A stretch of 36,924 nt of DNA. Origin: an uncultured Eubacteriales bacterium (GTDB lineage Bacteria; Bacillota; Clostridia; Monoglobales; Firm-18). Positions 3,102 through 27,368 of the stretch are shown here, piece by piece (within the stretch, counting starts at the first letter, position 1; each line of letters opens with the position of its first letter). The position numbers and the translations under genes were made by a program. The notes under the pieces were generated by a model. It was not told where the DNA came from, did not search any database, and was given only the letters and a program-made list of their open reading frames with translations. The stretch lies in contig CAJLYO010000001.1 in the NCBI GenBank assembly GCA_905210885.1, forward strand, positions 1-36,924, given 5' to 3'.

Positions 3102-4769
3102 TTATGTTTCCATTATAACAGGCAAAATCATCGGTTTTCTCTTTGTTTTCGTGTAAAGGAAGTCGCTGATTTTACTCTTAACCTGCATTTTTATTGTGTT
3201 CCAGTCCGTTATGCCCTTTTCATGACAGTCGTCAAGGGTTTTGCGTGCACAGCGGCGAATTTCTTCTATTAAGTCCTCGCTTTCGCGCATGTACACAAAT
3301 CCGCGGGAGATAATGTCGGGGCCGGAAACGATATCCTTGCTTTCGCAGGACAGGGTAACCACTACCACGATAAGTCCGTCTTCTGCAAGATGCTTTCTGT
3401 CGCGAAGTACGATATTTCCCACATCGCCCACACCCAGACCGTCAACAAGTATCGGTCCTGCCTGAACTGAGCCGTTTTTGCGGCAGCTGTCTTTTCCCAC
3501 TTCAAGCACATCGCCTATGCCGAGAATGTGTATGTTTTTCTCGCTTATTCCCATAGACAGCGCAAGCTTTGCATGCTGCATAAGGTGGCGGAATTCGCCG
3601 TGAACCGGGATAAAGTATTTGGGTTTTGCAAGGCTTAATATAAGCTTAAGTTCCTCGCGGCAGGCATGCCCCGAAACGTGAATATCCGCCAGGGATTCAT
3701 AAATAACCTCCGCGCCGAGCTTGAAAAGCTGATTTATAACGCGTGAAACGGTTTTTTCGTTTCCCGGGATAGGCGTTGCGGAAATAATAACCGTGTCGCC
3801 GTGAGTTATCGAAACCTTTTTGTGGTCCGAAAACGCCATTCTGGTAAGGGCGCTCATTGCCTCGCCCTGGCTTCCGGTAGTGATTATAACGAGCTTTTCC
3901 GAAGGATATTTGTTTATTTCGTCTATGTCAATAAGAGTGTTTTTCGGTACCTTCATATAACCAAGCTCAATTGCCACGTTTATGGCGTTAATCATGCTTC
4001 TGCCGGAAATGGCAACTTTTCTTTTGTACGCATATGCCGCATTTATAATCTGCTGAACCCTGTGCACGTTCGAGGCAAAGGTTGCAACGATTATGCGGCG
4101 TTTCTGATTGCTGCGGAACAGTTCGTCAAATGTCACACCTACGGTGCGTTCGCTCATTGTGTAGCCGGGACGCTCGATATTTGTGCTTTCGGAAAGCATA
4201 ACCAGTATGCCCTCTTTGCCCAGCTCTCCGATGCGCGCAAGATCCATCATTTCGCCGTCTATGGGCGTGGGATCTATTTTAAAGTCCCCGGTATGAAGGA
4301 TTATTCCGGCAGGGGTGTGCAATGCGACCGCCACCGAGCCGGGAATGCTGTGGTTGCTCCTGATAAATTCAACCTTGAAGCAGCCTACAGGCACCGTTTC
4401 GCCGGGATTTACCGTGTGCAGCTTTGACTTGTTTAAAAGTCCGTGCTCCTTAAGCTTATTGCTTACAAGACCCAGCGTGAAGCTTGTGCCGTAGATAGGA
4501 ACATCGATATCCCTTAAAAGGTACGGCAGTGCGCCGATATGGTCCTCATGCCCGTGAGTAAGCACGATTCCCCTTATCCTTTCACGGTTCTTAACGAGAT
4601 AGGTCATATCGGGTATAACGATATCAACCCCCAGCATCTCGTCGTCCGGAAATGCAAGACCGCAGTCGATAATGACGATTTCCTTTCCGTACTCAAAAAC
4701 AGTAATGTTTTTGCCGATTTCGTCAAGACCGCCAAGCGGTATGATTTTCAATTTTGATTTTTTTGTCAC
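3102..4769 (-). CDS. rnj: Ribonuclease J (metallo-beta-lactamase / beta-CASP RNase)
   Basis: 555 aa with N-terminus KLKIIPLGGLDEIGKN and the HGHEDHIG zinc motif. GTG start at 4769 lies 7 nt after GGAGG. Confidence 0.92.
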   Translation of the reverse strand: MTKKSKLKIIPLGGLDEIGKNITVFEYGKEIVIIDCGLAFPDDEMLGVDIVIPDMTYLVKNRERIRGIVLTHGHEDHIGALPYLLRDIDVPIYGTSFTLGLVSNKLKEHGLLNKSKLHTVNPGETVPVGCFKVEFIRSNHSIPGSVAVALHTPAGIILHTGDFKIDPTPIDGEMMDLARIGELGKEGILVMLSESTNIERPGYTMSERTVGVTFDELFRSNQKRRIIVATFASNVHRVQQIINAAYAYKRKVAISGRSMINAINVAIELGYMKVPKNTLIDIDEINKYPSEKLVIITTGSQGEAMSALTRMAFSDHKKVSITHGDTVIISATPIPGNEKTVSRVINQLFKLGAEVIYESLADIHVSGHACREELKLILSLAKPKYFIPVHGEFRHLMQHAKLALSMGISEKNIHILGIGDVLEVGKDSCRKNGSVQAGPILVDGLGVGDVGNIVLRDRKHLAEDGLIVVVVTLSCESKDIVSGPDIISRGFVYMRESEDLIEEIRRCARKTLDDCHEKGITDWNTIKMQVKSKISDFLYTKTKRKPMILPVIMET

Positions 4770-4834
4770 TTTTTAACCTCCGTTTTTTCCAAACCGTCTG
4801 TACGGTTTAATTTTATTTCCGATCACTTTATTGG

Positions 4835-4867
4835 TGAAAAATTAACTGAAACGGCCTTTGCCGTCTC
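4835..4867 (-). terminator. Terminator-like hairpin downstream of spoIIR, inside the predicted rnj 5' UTR
   Basis: The minus strand reads GAGACGGC-AAAG-GCCGTTTC (8 bp with one mismatch) followed by AGTTAATTTTT. Confidence 0.5.
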
Positions 4868-4888
4868 AACCGAAATAAACTATTATAC

Positions 4889-4917
4889 AGTATAACACAT
4901 TTTTGCAATATATGCAA
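4889..4917 (-). promoter_or_regulatory. Sigma-A type promoter for rnj
   Basis: The minus strand has TTGCAT, a 17-nt spacer and TATACT, with TGt immediately upstream of the -10 (extended -10). It lies directly after the spoIIR stop codon. Confidence 0.55.
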
Positions 4918-4920
4918 GTT

Positions 4921-5547
4921 TTATTTTCCCAAAAGCTCAAGCAGTTTGAATTTGAACTTATATTTTATGCTGTCGTCGCTGTTTGTCACAATGTTGTATT
5001 CCTCGTCCGTAAGTACGTTTTTAAGCTTTTGGCGGCTTGCATCGCCGAATTTTTCAAAGCAAAGCTGAGGGTACAAAACACACCACCAGTTTTTTCCCTC
5101 ACCCGAGCCTATGACAACGCGCAATGCGTAATATTCCCCCGCCGGAAGCTTTGAGGCTCCGTATGATTTTGTGGGAAAGTCAAACCCTCCCGTCATACAG
5201 TTTACGCTGTAGTTACAGCCTTTATCCGAAATAACGTTTTGGGCGGCTTTTTTTATGCCGGGTAAGTTCTCATTTATTATTCTTTTTGTTTCCGAAACGC
5301 TTTTTGCGTTTTCAAGCTTGTCCGATAAAAAATCCGCAACGCCGTCACGCACGGAAAGCTTTAAATTCTGATCCGCCTCGCTGTCGCTGTTTGCGATAAC
5401 GTGCAGACGTACAACCGACGAGGCAATGTCGGCGTGAACCTTGTTTGAATAACTGTTTGCGCATCCCAAAACCGCGATGCCGATAAGCAGTGATAAAAGA
5501 AGTTTTTTTATAAAAGGCGTTTCAAGTAAATCTTCCGTGTAAACCAT
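4921..5547 (-). CDS. spoIIR: Stage II sporulation protein R
   Basis: Shows VVRLHVIANSDSEADQNLKLSVRD and NWWCVLYPQLCF, both characteristic of SpoIIR, plus an N-terminal signal/anchor. The start was moved to ATG 5547 (MVYTEDLL), which lies 6 nt after AGGAGGGG. The track start at 5580 has no SD. Confidence 0.85.
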   Translation of the reverse strand: MVYTEDLLETPFIKKLLLSLLIGIAVLGCANSYSNKVHADIASSVVRLHVIANSDSEADQNLKLSVRDGVADFLSDKLENAKSVSETKRIINENLPGIKKAAQNVISDKGCNYSVNCMTGGFDFPTKSYGASKLPAGEYYALRVVIGSGEGKNWWCVLYPQLCFEKFGDASRQKLKNVLTDEEYNIVTNSDDSIKYKFKFKLLELLGK

Positions 5548-10962: not shown

Positions 10963-12478
10963 TAACATTTCCATGCCCATTGACAGCACACCTGAGGACG
11001 CAAAAGCGGAGGCTGTCAGACGGTGCGGAATTGAAAAAGAAAAAATCACCGGTGTGCATATAAAAAAACGCTCGGTTGACGCACGGCGCGGAACCGTTAA
11101 TTTCGTGTATTCCGTTTTAATTGAGTACGGTCCGGCGGAAGAAAAGACGAAGACGCCCGTTTTCGGCACGAAAAAGCAGGAACACGGTATCGTGGTTATC
11201 GGCAGCGGCCCTGCAGGGCTTTTTTGTGCATACACTCTGGCACAAAACGGTTACGCTCCCCTTCTTTTGGAGCGCGGTGCCGACATGAGCCGCCGCACGG
11301 CGGACGTTGCCGGATTTTATTCCGGTGGAAATCTTAACGAAAATTCAAATATTCAGTTCGGTGAGGGCGGCGCCGGTACGTTTTCCGACGGAAAGCTTAC
11401 CACAAGGGTGAATGACGAAAGATGCGATACGGTTTTGCGGATTTTTGTTGACAACGGTGCAAAAGACGAAATACTCTACGACAGTAAGCCGCACGTGGGC
11501 ACCGATATGCTGAAAGATATTGTTGTCAGCATGAGAAAGACAATAATTAAAAACGGCGGTGAGGTTCGTTTCAATACCGCCGTGACGGATATAAAAACCG
11601 AAAACGGAAAGCTTCGCGCGGTTGTTGCGGATGGCTGTGAAATTCCGTGCGACAAGGCGGTTTTTGCCGTCGGTCATTCGGCGAGGGATACCTATGAAAT
11701 GCTGTACTCAAAAGGTGCGGCGATGACACCCAAGGCATTTGCCATGGGATACAGGATAGAGCATAAGCGTGAATTTATAGATGTTGCGCAGTACGGAAAA
11801 TTCGCCGGTCATAAAAACCTCGGCGCGGCGGACTACCGTCTTACTTATAACGAGCTGGGCAGAAGCTGTTTTTCCTTTTGCATGTGCCCCGGCGGTTTTG
11901 TTGTTGCGGCGGCATCGGAGCACGGCGGCATTGCGGTTAACGGTATGAGCGAAAACAGCAGAAACGGTGAAAATTCCAACAGTGCAATCGTTGCGCAGAT
12001 AACGCCGGAGGATTTTGACGGCATTTTCGGCGGAATGGAACTTCAGCGAAAATGCGAGCGTGCGGCATATGACATTACCGGTTCATATACAGCACCGGCG
12101 CAAAATTCCGCTGATTTTATAAACGGTGTCAAAAGCACACGGCTTTTGCATGTTAAACCCACCTATCCTTTGGGGTGCGAGCCGTGGTCACTTAAAGGAC
12201 TGCTCCCAAAATCCGCAGGCGCGGTAATTGCCCGGGGTCTTAAAAGCTTTGACAGAAAAATCAAAGGATTTTCCGAAAACGGCGTGCTCACAGGGGTTGA
12301 AACGCGTACCTCCGCGCCGGTCAGAATTTTGAGAAATGAGAATATGGAAAGCATAACGATTAAAAATCTTATGCCCATAGGCGAAGGGGCGGGCTATGCC
12401 GGAGGAATAATGAGCGCGGCTGTTGACGGAATAAAGGCGGCAGGCAGTATAATGAGCGAATTTTGCCTGAGATGTTGA
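10946..12478 (+). CDS. Uncharacterized FAD-dependent dehydrogenase (COG2509-like)
   Basis: Carries the Rossmann motif VVIGSGPAGLFCAY and the FGEGGAGTFSDGKL signature. It overlaps cdaR by 17 nt, and AGGGGGA lies upstream of the ATG. Confidence 0.8.
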   Translation: MTLTVNNISMPIDSTPEDAKAEAVRRCGIEKEKITGVHIKKRSVDARRGTVNFVYSVLIEYGPAEEKTKTPVFGTKKQEHGIVVIGSGPAGLFCAYTLAQNGYAPLLLERGADMSRRTADVAGFYSGGNLNENSNIQFGEGGAGTFSDGKLTTRVNDERCDTVLRIFVDNGAKDEILYDSKPHVGTDMLKDIVVSMRKTIIKNGGEVRFNTAVTDIKTENGKLRAVVADGCEIPCDKAVFAVGHSARDTYEMLYSKGAAMTPKAFAMGYRIEHKREFIDVAQYGKFAGHKNLGAADYRLTYNELGRSCFSFCMCPGGFVVAAASEHGGIAVNGMSENSRNGENSNSAIVAQITPEDFDGIFGGMELQRKCERAAYDITGSYTAPAQNSADFINGVKSTRLLHVKPTYPLGCEPWSLKGLLPKSAGAVIARGLKSFDRKIKGFSENGVLTGVETRTSAPVRILRNENMESITIKNLMPIGEGAGYAGGIMSAAVDGIKAAGSIMSEFCLRC

Positions 12479-12503
12479 CAAAACGCAAAAAAGAATGTAT
12501 AAT
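12475..12503 (+). promoter_or_regulatory. Orphan consensus sigma-A promoter overlapping the stop codon of the FAD protein gene
   Basis: TTGACA (12475-12480, containing the TGA stop), an exact 17-nt spacer, then TATAAT (12498-12503). No protein gene follows before a terminator about 60 nt downstream. Confidence 0.5.
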
Positions 12504-12509
12504 GAACTT

Positions 12510-12597
12510 AAAGATGGCAAGACCTCAAACGGTTATGCCACAAAGTGAACTACTTTAGCAGTAGCCGCCTGTGTCAGAGGCGGCTACTGTACTTTTA
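12510..12597 (+). ncRNA. Candidate ~87-nt small RNA bounded by a promoter and a terminator
   Basis: It is bounded by the consensus promoter at 12475-12503 and the 12-bp hairpin plus TACTTTT at 12559-12597. The only internal ORF has 14 codons and no SD. It is antisense to the 3' end of the minus-strand small-ORF transcript. Confidence 0.35.
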
Positions 12598-12680
12598 CTG
12601 AGCAAATAATTATCACGAGGATAACCGTAAAAACCGAAATAATCAGTTTTTTTGCCATATGTACAATGCTTACTTTTCAT
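12555..12680 (-). CDS. Alternative 41-aa ORF MKSKHCTYGKKTDYFGFYGYPRDNYLLSKSTVAASDTGGYC in the same transcript
   Basis: ATG 12680 lies 7 nt after AAAGGGGGA, which is good SD spacing. It is Tyr/Gly-rich and not hydrophobic, I recognise no family, and it overlaps the 24-aa ORF in another frame. Confidence 0.25.
   Translation of the reverse strand: MKSKHCTYGKKTDYFGFYGYPRDNYLLSKSTVAASDTGGYC
12559..12597. terminator. Strong hairpin terminator ending the cdaA operon, shared with the convergent minus-strand transcript
   Basis: A perfect 12-bp stem, CAGTAGCCGCCT (12559-12570) with AGGCGGCTACTG (12578-12589), has a 7-nt loop and is followed by TACTTTTACT on the + strand. The U-tract is weak and there is no U-tract on the - strand. 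Confidence 0.65.
12584..12658 (-). CDS. Candidate 24-aa hydrophobic peptide MAKKLIISVFTVILVIIICSVKVQ (type I toxin-like or small membrane protein)
   Basis: ATG 12658 to TAG 12584. It is a single TM-like segment flanked by Lys residues, and its stop codon lies inside the shared hairpin. There is no SD directly upstream: the nearest GGGGG is 29 nt away (12659-12687), across an 8-bp hairpin (12665-12687). Confidence 0.3.
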   Translation of the reverse strand: MAKKLIISVFTVILVIIICSVKVQ

Positions 12681-12868: not shown

Positions 12869-12897
12869 TTGCATTATTTCTTTCTTTTATGTATAAT
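12869..12897 (+). promoter_or_regulatory. Sigma-A promoter of yajC and the SCIFF cluster
   Basis: TTGCAT (12869-12874), a 17-nt spacer, then TATAAT (12892-12897). Confidence 0.6.
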
Positions 12898-12926
12898 TAA
12901 TGTATTATGTATATGGAGGTTTGGGA

Positions 12927-13274
12927 ATGTTTAATGAGTTTATAGCATATGCTGCTCCGGTGGCCGACGCTGCCGCACAGACAGGCGAAGTGAGCACAGC
13001 TGCCGCTTTGGCTGCAAATATTCTTCCCTTTGCCGTGCTGATTCTTTTCTTCTGGTTGTTTATTATAAGACCCCAGAGAAAAAGAGAAAAGCAGACAAGA
13101 GAAATGCTTGCCGCGCTGAAAGTTGGGGATAAAATCACGACAATCGGCGGAATTGTGGGCAAGGTTGCAAGAATTAAGGATGACACCGTTACAATCGAAA
13201 CAGGTGCGGACAAGGTTAAAATTGTTTTCGAGCGCAAGGCGATTGCCTCGGTTGAACAAAAAATTTCTGACTGA
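12927..13274 (+). CDS. yajC: Preprotein translocase subunit YajC
   Basis: A single TM helix is followed by RPQRKREKQ..ML..LKVGDKI.T.GGI.G, the YajC signature. The start was moved to ATG 12927, 7 nt after GGAGG, because the track start at 12900 would precede the predicted transcription start. Confidence 0.88.
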   Translation: MFNEFIAYAAPVADAAAQTGEVSTAAALAANILPFAVLILFFWLFIIRPQRKREKQTREMLAALKVGDKITTIGGIVGKVARIKDDTVTIETGADKVKIVFERKAIASVEQKISD

Positions 13275-13334
13275 CATATTTAAACACCCCTTTGAATATC
13301 TATTTACAAAGGCTTTATTCGGAGGGTGTTTTAT

Positions 13335-13760
13335 ATGGATACAAATACCGTTGTAAAAGAAAACAAAAGCGTGCTGCCTTCGGCGCTGTGCGTCATTGTC
13401 AATGTGGCGGTGACATATGCCGTTATGCTTGTGTGCCTTTTTGTTTTCGCGTTAATCGTTACATATACCGATTTCCCGGAGGAATTTGTCTCCGCGGTGG
13501 TGCTGGTTATGACGGTTATAAGCATTATGCTGTCCGGAATACTTACGGCGCGCAAAAGCGGCAGAAAAGGCTGGCTTTGCGGCGCTGTTTCCGGTGTGGT
13601 TTATATGCTGACGCTGTTTGGTTTGTCCGCATTGGCGTTTAGAAATGCCGGTGTGGGTATAAACCTTGTTACCATGCTTGCCCTGGGGCTTTTTGCCGGG
13701 ACGTTCGGCGGTATACTTGGGATAAATATGAAAGGAGCAAGGAAAAATGAAAAACGTTAA
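13335..13760 (+). CDS. Small 4-TM membrane protein (TIGR04086-type, commonly found next to yajC and SCIFF)
   Basis: 141 aa with four hydrophobic helices. ATG 13335 lies 8 nt after GGAGGG; the track GTG at 13326 sits inside the SD. Its stop overlaps the SCIFF start by 14 nt. Confidence 0.7.
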   Translation: MDTNTVVKENKSVLPSALCVIVNVAVTYAVMLVCLFVFALIVTYTDFPEEFVSAVVLVMTVISIMLSGILTARKSGRKGWLCGAVSGVVYMLTLFGLSALAFRNAGVGINLVTMLALGLFAGTFGGILGINMKGARKNEKR

Positions 13761-13893
13761 AACTTTATGCGGCGCAACCCTTAAGGCAAGCGCTTCAAAG
13801 GGCGGCTGCGGTGAATGTCAGACTTCCTGCCAGTCAGCTTGCAAAACTTCCTGCACTGTTGCAAATCAGAAGTGCGAAAACAAAAATAAATAA
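13747..13893 (+). CDS. scfA: SCIFF (six-cysteine) ranthipeptide precursor, 48 aa; absent from the ORF track
   Basis: Encodes MKNVKTLCGATLKASASKGGCGECQTSCQSACKTSCTVANQKCENKNK. GGAG at 13734-13737 lies 9 nt before the ATG. The core GGCGECQTSCQSACKTSCTV.NQ.CE matches the near-invariant SCIFF core as I recall it. Confidence 0.88.
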   Translation: MKNVKTLCGATLKASASKGGCGECQTSCQSACKTSCTVANQKCENKNK

Positions 13894-13900
13894 TTAAATT

Positions 13901-13926
13901 CGGGTGCCCCGGCACCCGTTTTTTTT
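13901..13926 (+). terminator. Intrinsic terminator or attenuator between the SCIFF precursor and its maturase
   Basis: Stem CGGGTGC (13901-13907) pairs with GCACCCG (13912-13918), with loop CCCG and then eight T (13919-13926). Confidence 0.7.
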
Positions 13927-13942
13927 AGAAAGGGTTATACAG

Positions 13943-15283
13943 ATGATTCACAAGTTTACCATGGACGGCATTAATATCGTGACCGATGTAAACAGCGGTG
14001 CCGTGCATATTGTGTCCGACTTGGTTTATAAATTAATCGACAGCACCGAGGCTGAGAAAAAGGAGCTTTCGTCTTATCCGGAGTCGGAAATATCCGAAGC
14101 GGCGGCAGAAATTGAACAGCTTAAAAACGACGGACTTCTTTTTACGGAGGATACCTATGCCGAGGCTGCAAAAAAGATAAAGCGCCGTCCGGTTATAAAG
14201 GCGCTTTGCCTTCATGTTTCCCATGACTGTAATTTAAGATGCAAATATTGCTTTGCCGGCACAGGCTCGTTTTGCGGCGAGCGTTCTCTTATGTCGGAGA
14301 AAGTGGGAAAAGCGGCAATTGACTTTGTTATTGAAAGATCCGGCGGGCGCAAAAATATAGAAATTGACTTTTTCGGCGGCGAGCCCTTAATGAATTTCGA
14401 TGTTGTTAAAAAGCTTACTTACTACGCCGAGGAGCAGGGAGAGCTTCACGGCAAGAATTTCAGGCTTACTATAACCACAAACGGCGTTTTACTTGACGAG
14501 GAAAAACTTAAGTTTATAAACGAGCACATGTCAAACCTTGTTTTAAGCATTGACGGACGCAAGGAGATAAACGATATGATGCGCCCGACGGTGAGCGGCG
14601 GCGGAAGTTATGATATAATTCTGCCTAAGTTTAAGCGCGCGGCTGAAAGCAGAAACCAGGATAATTACTATGTCCGCGGCACGTTTACGCGGCATAATCT
14701 CGATTTTGCGCGTGACGTTATTCATCTTGCGGATTTGGGCTTTAAGCAGATTTCCGTTGAGCCTGTTGTGGGCGGTGCGGATATGGATTATTCCCTTAAA
14801 AACGAGGACTTGCCGGTGATATTTGAACAGTATGAGGAGCTTGCGAAAGAATATGCAAAGCGCCAAAACGGAGATGACTGGTTTAATTTCTTTCACTTCA
14901 TGATTGACTTGGAACAGGGTCCGTGCGTTATAAAAAGAATGTCCGGCTGCGGTGCAGGGTGCGAGTACGTTGCGGTTACTCCCGACGGCGATATTTACCC
15001 GTGCCATCAGTTTGTGGGAAATAAGGATTTTCTTTTGGGCAATGTAACGGATAAGACATACAGTGACAGGCTGACTTCAAGTTTTGCGGACGCAAATGTG
15101 TACACAAAGCCGAAATGCAGCGAATGCTGGGCGAAATTCTATTGCAGCGGCGGCTGTCATGCGAATGCGTATCAGTTCTCCAAAGATATCATGACGCCTT
15201 ACGAAATAGGCTGTGAGCTTGAAAGAAAACGTGTGGAATGTGCATTATATATAAAGGCAAAGGAAATGCTTGATAGTGAGTAG
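13943..15283 (+). CDS. scfB: Radical SAM/SPASM thioether-forming SCIFF maturase
   Basis: Carries the CNLRCKYC radical SAM cluster, FFGGEPL, and C-terminal SPASM cysteine clusters (CGAGCEYVAVTPDGDIYPCHQF; CSECWAKFYCSGGCHANA). The N-terminus MIHKFTMDGINIVTDVNSGAVHIV is typical of the family. The start is set at ATG 13943 because the track GTG at 13904 lies inside the terminator hairpin. Confidence 0.9.
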   Translation: MIHKFTMDGINIVTDVNSGAVHIVSDLVYKLIDSTEAEKKELSSYPESEISEAAAEIEQLKNDGLLFTEDTYAEAAKKIKRRPVIKALCLHVSHDCNLRCKYCFAGTGSFCGERSLMSEKVGKAAIDFVIERSGGRKNIEIDFFGGEPLMNFDVVKKLTYYAEEQGELHGKNFRLTITTNGVLLDEEKLKFINEHMSNLVLSIDGRKEINDMMRPTVSGGGSYDIILPKFKRAAESRNQDNYYVRGTFTRHNLDFARDVIHLADLGFKQISVEPVVGGADMDYSLKNEDLPVIFEQYEELAKEYAKRQNGDDWFNFFHFMIDLEQGPCVIKRMSGCGAGCEYVAVTPDGDIYPCHQFVGNKDFLLGNVTDKTYSDRLTSSFADANVYTKPKCSECWAKFYCSGGCHANAYQFSKDIMTPYEIGCELERKRVECALYIKAKEMLDSE

Positions 15284-15300: not shown

Positions 15301-16287
15301 ATGGACAGGATTGAAGAAATGCTTGCCCGGTATAAAAGCTGGTGCGAAAAGCTTGGTATTGTGACCGCCGGTGATATAAACAGGATTATTGACGAGGGCA
15401 AGACAGACACTTTAATTAACTTAAGCGAAATATGGCATGAACAGAATATTTCCGAAATAGCGGAAAAAATACGGGATAATATCCGTGAGAAACGCATCGT
15501 TATGATAAGCGGTCCGTCCTCTTCGGGGAAAACCTCGTTTGCCAAAAAGCTTCAGCTCCATTTGCGCGTCCTCGGTATAAATGCCGTTTCGATTTCCATG
15601 GACGACTATTATATCGAGTCGGAAAAAATGCCGAAAAATCCCGACGGTACCCCGGATTACGAGGCGCTCCAATCAATCGATTACATGCGTTTTAACCGCG
15701 ATATGGAGCTTTTGACAATTGGCGAAACTGCCGTGATGCCGCGCATGGATTTTGAAACCGGCGTAATAAACCAGACTGCCACTACTCTAAAGCTTGAAAA
15801 AGATGAAATTATAATTGTTGAGGGCATACACGGTCTTAATGATAAGATTATTTCGAACATCGACAGCGAACGCAAATATAAAATATACTGCTCTGCCCTG
15901 ACGGCGCTGAGCACGGACGACGGCAAGCGTATAAAATCGCGCACCATCCGCTTTATACGGCGGCTTATCCGTGATTATAAGTTCAGAAATTCCAGCTGCA
16001 AAAATACTTTCATGCTGTGGCCCGGGGTGGAGGAAGGGGCACGTAAAAATATATTTCCGTATACCGACACTGCGGACGTTATTTTTAATTCGTCCCTGCT
16101 TTATGAGCTTGCAGTGTACAAAAGCTTTTTGAATGAAGTTTTTGATAAAAGCGAATGTGACGAAAAGGACAGCGGTGAAATTGCAGCTTTGCGTGATTTG
16201 CTCGGAAATTTCCATGAGATACCGGCGCGGTCTACGCCTCATTCGTCCATTATCCGCGAATTTATCGGCGGAAGCACAATTTTATAA
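15301..16287 (+). CDS. Uridine kinase / phosphoribulokinase-family P-loop nucleoside kinase-like protein
   Basis: Carries Walker A GPSSSGKTSF, followed by SMDDYY and IIVEGIHGLN, as in Udk/PRK-family kinases. It starts 17 nt after scfB. Confidence 0.7.
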   Translation: MDRIEEMLARYKSWCEKLGIVTAGDINRIIDEGKTDTLINLSEIWHEQNISEIAEKIRDNIREKRIVMISGPSSSGKTSFAKKLQLHLRVLGINAVSISMDDYYIESEKMPKNPDGTPDYEALQSIDYMRFNRDMELLTIGETAVMPRMDFETGVINQTATTLKLEKDEIIIVEGIHGLNDKIISNIDSERKYKIYCSALTALSTDDGKRIKSRTIRFIRRLIRDYKFRNSSCKNTFMLWPGVEEGARKNIFPYTDTADVIFNSSLLYELAVYKSFLNEVFDKSECDEKDSGEIAALRDLLGNFHEIPARSTPHSSIIREFIGGSTIL

Positions 16288-27118: not shown

Positions 27119-27368
27119 AGAAAAAGCGTGATATGACATACGATGATTTGGGAGGTTGCCGATACCGATGATATCGGGTTTTTCCAAGGAGAATGTCCTG
27201 TTTATAAAGCCGGGCGCCAGTCACGTTTGCTACGAAAAAATATAGGTAAGTTATGTTATTTTTATGTAGTTCTATGCCCAGTTGTGCCATGCCAGGCGGC
27301 TGGGTTTACTTGTAAGCCCACTCGATACGCCCGGGTGAGTGTAAAGAAATTAAGGAGGAAATTGAAAA

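Follow-up and report, generated by a model that had tools for sequence, protein, structure and literature searches.

A SCIFF ranthipeptide precursor gene and its radical SAM/SPASM maturase behind yajC in an uncultured Clostridia bacterium

A 48-codon gene, scfA, and the radical S-adenosylmethionine (SAM) enzyme gene that follows it, scfB, encode a SCIFF (named for six cysteines within forty-five residues) ranthipeptide precursor and its SPASM-domain maturase in a 36,924-nt (36.9 kb) stretch of DNA from an uncultured Eubacteriales bacterium (contig CAJLYO010000001.1 of assembly GCA_905210885.1). This stretch is hereafter called the window, and all of its genes were annotated. We hold with high confidence that the locus is a canonical, chromosomal SCIFF ranthipeptide system, carried by an uncultured gut bacterium of the Clostridia that forms spores, with gene identities, operon layout, and conserved catalytic and substrate residues all in place. 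It is a textbook copy of a Clostridia-wide system that is already known and already annotated. The SCIFF family was described in 2011; it is curated in TIGRFAMs/NCBIfam and in Pfam, its structure and biochemistry have been characterised, and its members receive automatic annotation. With regard to its role, the peptide most likely acts as a conserved factor in cell physiology or regulation, not as an antibiotic. The pair of genes and the ribosome-binding site of the first are located as follows.

13731..13737, + strand: Shine-Dalgarno sequence AAAGGAG for scfA, inside the membrane gene at its 3' end and 9 nt from the ATG (sequence reading)
13747..13893, + strand: scfA, SCIFF ranthipeptide precursor, 48 aa (TIGR03973, PF13165, positional conservation, public gene calls)
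13943..15283, + strand: scfB, radical SAM/SPASM thioether-forming SCIFF maturase, 446 aa (TIGR03974, match to CteB, cysteine ligands)

The open reading frame (ORF) of scfA runs from the ATG at 13747 to the TAA at 13893 and is translated as MKNVKTLCGATLKASASKGGCGECQTSCQSACKTSCTVANQKCENKNK. It is a real gene, and its translation is exactly the one given by the initial annotation of this DNA, as are the GGAG at 13734-13737 and its 9-nt spacing. The same annotation had proposed that the product is a SCIFF precursor, and hidden Markov model (HMM) searches bear this out, as the peptide scores 70.8 bits on TIGR03973 (E = 6.7e-20; curated cut-off 50 bits) and 74.1 bits on PF13165 (E = 7.8e-21; cut-off 27 bits). 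The core cysteines lie at residues 21, 24, 28, 32, 36, and 43, and there is an additional cysteine, Cys8, in the leader. SCIFF precursors are recognised by a length of about 45 residues and six core cysteines that follow the near-invariant motif GCGECQTSCQSACKTSCTV(A/G)NQxC, a form that the 48-aa product takes, and by a position no more than about 500 bp from the ScfB radical SAM gene (PMC5300114); in the window, 49 nt separate the stop of scfA from the start of scfB. The thioether donor Cys32 and the acceptor residues Thr34/Thr37 (PMC8326336, PMC8172795) are all present, with the same numbering as in CteA and Tte1186a.

Conservation across Clostridia was followed in a set seeded with ScfB. 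A scan of GTDB species representatives gave at least 555 ScfB relatives, the best 80 of which (58–84% identity, mostly uncultured Clostridia) were studied. The alignment of SCIFF peptides from these loci holds 75 sequences, 76 with the window, and residues C21-V38 of scfA (CGECQTSCQSACKTSCTV) are identical in 75/75 of them. In the larger set of 104 peptides over which leader residues were counted, which covers very divergent Clostridia, 98 share the same 18-residue core. Across loci, the third positions of the core codons are 45% identical as against 96% at positions 1 and 2, and Ser35 is encoded by TCN as well as AGY codons. This codon pattern indicates that scfA is under very strong purifying selection as a translated peptide, with synonymous sites saturated. 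Moreover, scfA lies immediately 5' of scfB in 75/80 of the related loci. That the 48-codon ORF arose by chance is ruled out by the HMM E-values of about 1e-20, the codon pattern, and this positional conservation.

The leader, which aligns with residues 1-21 of CteA (PDB 5WGG chain B), is where the window peptide departs from its relatives. Asn3 stands in place of the usual His (95/104 peptides), as it does in the three closest loci (L001-L003), and Cys8 replaces the usual Asn (75/104 peptides), resulting in seven cysteines rather than six. Cys8 is common to the window, L001-L003, L005, and L096.

The gene had been presented as hidden, and this part of the initial annotation does not stand. Public gene calls on contig CABRTF010000002.1 (GCA_902473755.1), with which the window was identified, list YajC, DUF3792, the 48-aa SCIFF peptide, and the radical SAM/SPASM enzyme in order, with the peptide labelled SCIFF. 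The exact scfA peptide has been called on 26 contigs overall, and its cluster-mates are named 'six-cysteine ranthipeptide SCIFF'. Loci identical to the window occur in human-gut metagenomes, and the exact 446-aa ScfB product, starting from the ATG at 13943, is found in a public gene collection.

The downstream enzyme had been described as a radical SAM/SPASM protein with a CNLRCKYC cluster and C-terminal cysteine clusters, all of which can be read in the sequence. ScfB scores 689.9 bits on the SCIFF-maturase equivalog TIGR03974 (E 1.5e-207; cut-off 425) and 588.9 on the 'not_ScfB' exception model NF040492, under its cut-off of 855. A phmmer comparison with CteB (PDB 5WGG) gives E = 2.6e-197 over residues 1-442. 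The radical SAM motif CX3CX2C is C96-NLR-C100-KY-C103, and the enzyme also matches PF04055. The SPASM region, matched by PF13186, supplies seven cysteines for two auxiliary [4Fe-4S] clusters: Cys336, Cys354, and Cys405 (Aux I) align with C344, C362, and C413 of CteB, and Cys392, Cys395, Cys401, and Cys424 (Aux II) with C400, C403, C409, and C432. On the published list of CteB cluster ligands (PMC10177961), all ten ligand cysteines are thus conserved. Residues 1-85 align with the N-terminal leader-binding region of CteB, minus 6 residues that are deleted.

One alternative would make the precursor a chance ORF, or the enzyme a member of another SPASM subfamily, such as the anaerobic sulfatase maturases, lacking a peptide substrate. 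The small size of the ORF is the one thing in its favour, and the enzyme half is excluded by a score of 120.4 bits on the anaerobic sulfatase maturase model TIGR03942, where 349.45 is the cut-off, together with the TIGR03974 E-value above. With the evidence for scfA already given, we consider the probability of this alternative to be negligible. ScfB-like genes apart from SCIFF do exist elsewhere. L004, L006, and L037 hold such genes (at about 4001-5350; 61-68% identity) with no SCIFF gene nearby, which fit the NCBIfam exception model for a 'ScfB-related orphan maturase'. A Gly/Cys-rich 79-aa ORF just 3' of the gene in L037 (5510-5749) could be a different substrate.

The pair is part of a longer unit that begins with yajC, to which the following features belong.

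12869..12897, + strand: probable operon promoter, TTGCAT (-35, 12869-12874), 17-nt spacer, TATAAT (-10, 12892-12897), with an A-rich tract before it (sequence reading)
12927..13274, + strand: yajC, Sec translocon accessory subunit, 115 aa, Shine-Dalgarno sequence GGAGG at 12915-12919 (TIGR00739, PF02699)
13335..13760, + strand: TIGR04086/DUF3792 membrane protein, 141 aa, Shine-Dalgarno sequence GGAGG at 13321-13325 (TIGR04086, PF12670)
13901..13926, + strand: putative intrinsic terminator/attenuator, a 7-bp GC-rich stem with a 4-nt loop (13901-13918) followed by T8 (13919-13926) (scan, RNAfold)
15301..16287, + strand: uridine-kinase/PRK-family P-loop protein, 328 aa, with its own GGAGG (PF00485; NF004018 below cut-off)

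YajC scores 90.7 bits on TIGR00739 (cut-off 44.2) and 101.4 bits on PF02699 (cut-off 28.2). The membrane protein, described earlier as having four transmembrane segments, matches TIGR04086 with 92.1 bits (cut-off 30) and PF12670 (DUF3792) with 83 bits (cut-off 31.3). Hydropathy and charge distribution predict four transmembrane helices in an N-in/C-in orientation, and an AlphaFold2 model built on a 13-sequence alignment is a four-helix bundle with a pLDDT of 82. A Foldseek search of the PDB with this model gave no significant fold match, the best being weakly FtsX-like (E = 0.59, TM-score <0.5). Homology searching found only 12 close relatives, all unnamed, and no literature on DUF3792/TIGR04086 was found. 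The exact 115-aa and 141-aa products are both present in public gene calls, which agree with ATG starts at 12927 for yajC and at 13335 for the membrane gene. The latter start, with its GGAGG and 9-nt spacer, is more likely than the GTG at 13326 favoured by the initial annotation.

The membrane gene stop lies at 13758-13760, resulting in a 14-nt overlap with the start of scfA. Translational coupling had been proposed from this overlap. The overlap itself is confirmed, but its scope is narrower than implied. The two genes overlap by 14 nt in the window and by 4 nt (ATGA) in L001-L003, whereas elsewhere they are separated by gaps of 16–202 nt. Since the overlap is confined to the window and L001-L003, coupling would be a lineage-specific trait. 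When window 13745-13760 is compared with L001:3790-3793, the membrane frame is seen to continue beyond the ATGA junction of L001-L003, giving the 14-nt overlap. The window membrane protein thereby gains about 3-4 C-terminal residues (…KGARKNEKR vs …KGAKRK).

The unit had also been placed under a single consensus promoter. The -10 element at 12892-12897 is perfect, and about 85 nt 5' of yajC are conserved in L001-L003 with an A-tract and TTGCA(T/A)-17-TATAAT; this segment is the probable promoter. The description nevertheless needs amendment, as the -35 element matches the consensus at only 3/6 positions, which is why it is absent from the promoter scan listing, and a putative terminator divides the unit after scfA. 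No riboswitch or leader was found in the 400-nt gap 5' of yajC, where Rfam models gave no match at gathering thresholds or at E <= 1.

The hairpin with its T8, which the initial annotation omitted, lies 7 nt past the scfA stop and 16 nt ahead of the scfB start, with an RNAfold energy of -13.9 kcal/mol. When one set of criteria was applied throughout, a hairpin followed by a T-run was found in the scfA–scfB spacer of 63/76 loci, compared with 1.5 in shuffles, 7 in pieces of equal length taken from scfB, and 16 when the reverse strand was scanned. Across loci, a terminator after scfA is by this measure a conserved design feature, and the window hairpin probably acts as a terminator or attenuator. 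Occlusion of the terminator by the ribosome was considered as a family-wide mechanism and rejected, because the distance from stop to hairpin has a median of 27 nt in the 63 loci and is <=15 nt in 16 of them.

The kinase-like gene begins 17 nt past the scfB stop and is probably co-transcribed with it. Its product carries an N-terminal extension of about 60 residues and scores under the udk equivalog cut-offs. We rejected it as a component of the SCIFF system, as no homologue adjoins scfB in any of the 80 loci.

Taken together, these features suggest how the locus may operate. Transcription from a sigma-A-type promoter 5' of yajC would yield a transcript of yajC, the DUF3792 gene, and scfA, and the majority of transcripts would end at the hairpin and T8 behind scfA. 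Read-through past T8 would extend the remainder into scfB and the kinase-like gene, and termination with partial read-through would thus leave more precursor mRNA than enzyme mRNA. The 48-aa ScfA would be translated from its own Shine-Dalgarno sequence inside the end of the membrane gene, and ScfB would bind its conserved N-terminal leader. By homology to CteB/CteA and Tte1186/Tte1186a, we infer that SAM is cleaved at the C96/C100/C103 cluster, with the resulting 5'-deoxyadenosyl radical abstracting hydrogen from a Thr side chain. With the assistance of the two SPASM clusters, Cys32 would then be joined to Thr34 or Thr37 via a non-alpha (C-gamma) thioether. A thioether from Cys sulfur to C-beta or C-gamma is what defines a mature ranthipeptide. 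The chemistry of SCIFF peptides is treated in PMC5300114, PMC8326336, PMC8172795, and PMC10177961. Both the dosage effect of the terminator and the coupling of scfA to the membrane gene are putative, as they are deduced from the DNA sequence. Several points weigh against this account. Which residue accepts the crosslink, Thr34 or Thr37, is a matter of dispute even for the model enzymes (PMC8326336, PMC8172795). A promoter scan lists weak promoter-like sites inside yajC, so that more than one promoter may serve the unit. In addition, the energy of the 48-nt hairpin piece folded alone is not unusual for its composition (z = -1.35), and its proposed terminator role therefore rests on T8 and conservation across loci.

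The order yajC, membrane gene, scfA, scfB, to which the initial annotation drew attention, recurs in other Clostridia. A second set, seeded with DUF3792, comprised 61 metagenome loci and was scanned with a 10-sequence alignment subset. The order that prevails in both seed sets is tgt > yajC > DUF3792 > scfA > scfB > secD > secF (for example in L013, L021, L026, L086, and L087). Among the 80 ScfB loci, secD/secF lie 3' of scfB on the same strand in 48, and the stretch between scfB and secD holds a hexapeptide-repeat (LbH) protein in 21 and an HD-domain protein in 17. DUF3792 adjoins scfA in 35 of the 69 ScfB-seeded loci with enough flanking sequence. In the DUF3792-seeded loci, yajC is directly 5' in 41/52 and scfA directly 3' in 29/47, and the link of DUF3792 to yajC is therefore closer than its link to scfA. 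Loci without yajC have neighbours that include lspA and ftsY, and in 16 of the 63 fully flanked loci none of yajC, DUF3792, and secDF stand beside scfAB. The window contains no homologue of tgt, secD, secF, or the LbH and HD genes. It is therefore a derived, broken-up arrangement in which yajC-DUF3792-scfA-scfB have been kept together.

L010 carries the LbH and HD proteins as a single 430-aa fusion (L010:1560-2852); other instances are found at L013:5364-5867 and L012:5373-6038. The fusion suggests that the two proteins may work together. Four loci carry scfA with no scfB in the remaining 3' sequence of 1.3-3.8 kb (L127:5442-5612, L131:4961-5101, L135:4485-4667, and L096:1351-1512). These orphan genes are at odds with the expectation of an ScfB beside every ScfA (PMC5300114). 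In L127, L131, and L135, the core is a variant, CGECQASCQ or CGECQAACQ in place of the usual CGECQTSCQ, and scfA lies directly between yajC-DUF3792 and secD-secF; the 3' sequence left in these three, free of scfB, is 1.3–3.6 kb.

This gene order has to be weighed as a clue to function, as it would be consistent with SCIFF, with or without DUF3792, being a membrane housekeeping factor that works alongside YajC-SecDF, an accessory module of the Sec translocon. The dominant operon tgt>yajC>DUF3792>scfA>scfB>(LbH, HD)>secD>secF, the orphan genes placed between yajC-DUF3792 and secDF, the lspA and ftsY neighbours, the extreme constraint on the peptide, and the overlap of scfA with the membrane gene in the window lineage can all be read this way. 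However, tgt sits in the same operon without a secretion role, so gene order proves little. The 16 loci without yajC, DUF3792, or secDF as neighbours, and the window itself, without secDF or tgt, argue against it, as do the 18/47 loci in which DUF3792 has no scfA 3' and the DUF3792 model, which offers no functional clue. No report linking SCIFF or ranthipeptides with SecD, SecF, or YajC was found in the literature searched. We regard such a role as unlikely. The housekeeping or secretion-linked role proposed in the initial annotation is putative, and the synteny strengthens it in a circumstantial way.

A more specific form of this proposal, in which SCIFF, possibly with DUF3792, is a thioether-stapled, Cys-rich functional accessory of the YajC-SecDF arm at the membrane, appears quite improbable to us. 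If it were true, it would explain the frozen core across the class, the missing exporter and protease, and the position between yajC and secDF. It would also explain why scfA in the window is still attached to yajC-DUF3792 and overlaps the membrane gene. The quorum-sensing and sporulation phenotypes discussed below would then be downstream effects of altered secretion.

The role of SCIFF peptides had been called unknown, a statement that is partly outdated, as knockouts in two clostridia point to a quorum-sensing or regulatory role. According to PMC8102284, PMC8326336, and bioRxiv 10.1101/2025.02.12.637840, which relay Chen et al. 2020, disrupting the genes for the precursor and the radical SAM enzyme in C. 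beijerinckii lowers the expression of sporulation genes and raises that of agr. These sources also report a SCIFF role in C. ljungdahlii; the knockouts in the two species, which altered sporulation and agr expression, were read in terms of quorum sensing.

It is possible that the modified peptide is a signal, extracellular or of cell density, with input into the quorum-sensing and sporulation regulons, a reading that we hold only tentatively and at somewhat less than even probability. The sporulation and agr changes in C. beijerinckii and the role in C. ljungdahlii, as relayed in those sources, would fit a signal. The window organism is a spore former, with spoIIE, spoIIR, and a sigma factor gene nearby. 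Conversely, a core identical in 98/104 peptides runs opposite to the diversification into pherotypes that peptide signals typically show, and the phenotypes of the knockouts, being transcriptomic, could have arisen indirectly. An exporter, a leader peptidase, a receptor kinase, and a response regulator are all absent from the window. No receptor, whether a histidine kinase or an RRNPP-type regulator, and no processing or export gene were found in the window; a receptor may be encoded elsewhere in the genome.

An antimicrobial function was also considered, in which the locus would be a classical bacteriocin cluster. A Cys-rich, ribosomally synthesised and post-translationally modified peptide with a radical SAM thioether maturase is what sactipeptide antibiotics also have, and genome-mining tools place ranthipeptide clusters among bacteriocin-like biosynthetic gene clusters. 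Nevertheless, the window annotation confirms the earlier observation that protease, exporter, and immunity genes are absent: no ABC exporter, C39 or other peptidase, immunity-like gene, or histidine kinase is present in the fully annotated 36.9 kb. The argument from this absence against a bacteriocin is supported, although it dates from the 2011 description of the family, and that description and later reviews, as cited in the relevant passages of PMC8326336, argue against such a function. Together with a core that is invariant across the class, a reported number of no more than one copy per species, and a housekeeping context, this makes a bacteriocin very improbable.

A conserved factor in cell physiology or regulation remains the most likely role for the peptide. 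As far as this question is concerned, the window locus is no more testable than any cultured Clostridium. Several by-products of the comparison could be useful for it: the tgt-yajC-secDF operon habitually encloses the SCIFF pair, DUF3792 is a more faithful companion of yajC than of scfA, the terminator after scfA is conserved, and in a few lineages scfA is kept between yajC and secDF although the nearby sequence seen has no maturase gene.

The neighbours of the locus in the window are sporulation, cyclic di-AMP, tRNA-synthetase, amino-acid, and ribosomal genes, and the sole transporter is a major facilitator superfamily gene 6 kb upstream, directly 3' of an acyltransferase gene. A perfect TTGACA-17-TATAAT promoter sequence lies at 12475-12503 (+), overlapping the stop of a FAD-protein gene. 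It is followed by a strongly structured stretch of about 90 nt at 12508-12605 (-39.6 kcal/mol, z = -5.25) that closes with a 13-bp hairpin and a weak T tail and has no Rfam match. On the opposite strand, a 41-aa ORF at 12680..12555 (MKSKHCTYGKKTDYFGFYGYPRDNYLLSKSTVAASDTGGYC) with a good Shine-Dalgarno sequence overlaps this hairpin. It is gene-called in public assemblies, belongs to no family, and has no conserved counterpart in L001-L003. The region 12475-12680 may hold a small RNA that converges on a gene for a small protein, or nothing more than the terminator of the upstream gene. Further along, an S10-Clostridia ribosomal-protein leader (RF03136, 39.6 bits) at 27134-27220, ahead of the L3/L4/L2 genes, is ordinary.

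Among the closest known systems is thermocellin, the CteA/CteB pair of Acetivibrio (Clostridium) thermocellus (PDB 5WGG/5WHY), which the window pair resembles in the CX3CX2C motif, in all seven aligned SPASM cysteines, in the leader, and in Cys32, Thr34, and Thr37 at the same positions. The window core equals the consensus SCIFF core, a comparison made with the consensus and not with the core of CteA itself. The window peptide differs from CteA in a C-terminal tail that is 3 residues longer and in Asn3 and Cys8, and ScfB differs from CteB in the 6-residue deletion of the leader-binding region. The Acetivibrio loci L012, L019, and L042 also lack yajC-DUF3792 on the 5' side, where L012 has lspA and rluD, and L019 and L042 have ORFs of the same sizes.

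Tte1186a/Tte1186 of Caldanaerobacter subterraneus belong to the same SCIFF/ScfB family and are set beside the window by description only; Tte1186 contains three [4Fe-4S] clusters and makes one Cys32-Thr thioether (PMC8326336, PMC10177961). The SCIFF systems of C. beijerinckii and C. ljungdahlii are also of this family and, in the sources cited above, its only members with knockout phenotypes, although these organisms differ from that of the window. PapA/PapB (freyrasin) and QhpD are more distant. Their enzymes are homologous radical SAM/SPASM proteins that form thioethers with non-alpha linkages, whereas PapA is a substrate with six CX3D motifs and QhpD acts on a protein subunit. ScfB scores below the cut-offs of both families (269.7 bits vs 340 on NF047865 for PapB and 254.5 vs 453 on TIGR03906 for QhpD), and by these profile scores the window enzyme is outside them. 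Finally, the unit resembles the E. coli-type tgt-yajC-secD-secF operon in that yajC heads it and that most related loci hold SCIFF between yajC and secDF. It differs in that tgt and secDF are missing from the window, where only the yajC-DUF3792-scfA-scfB block has been kept.

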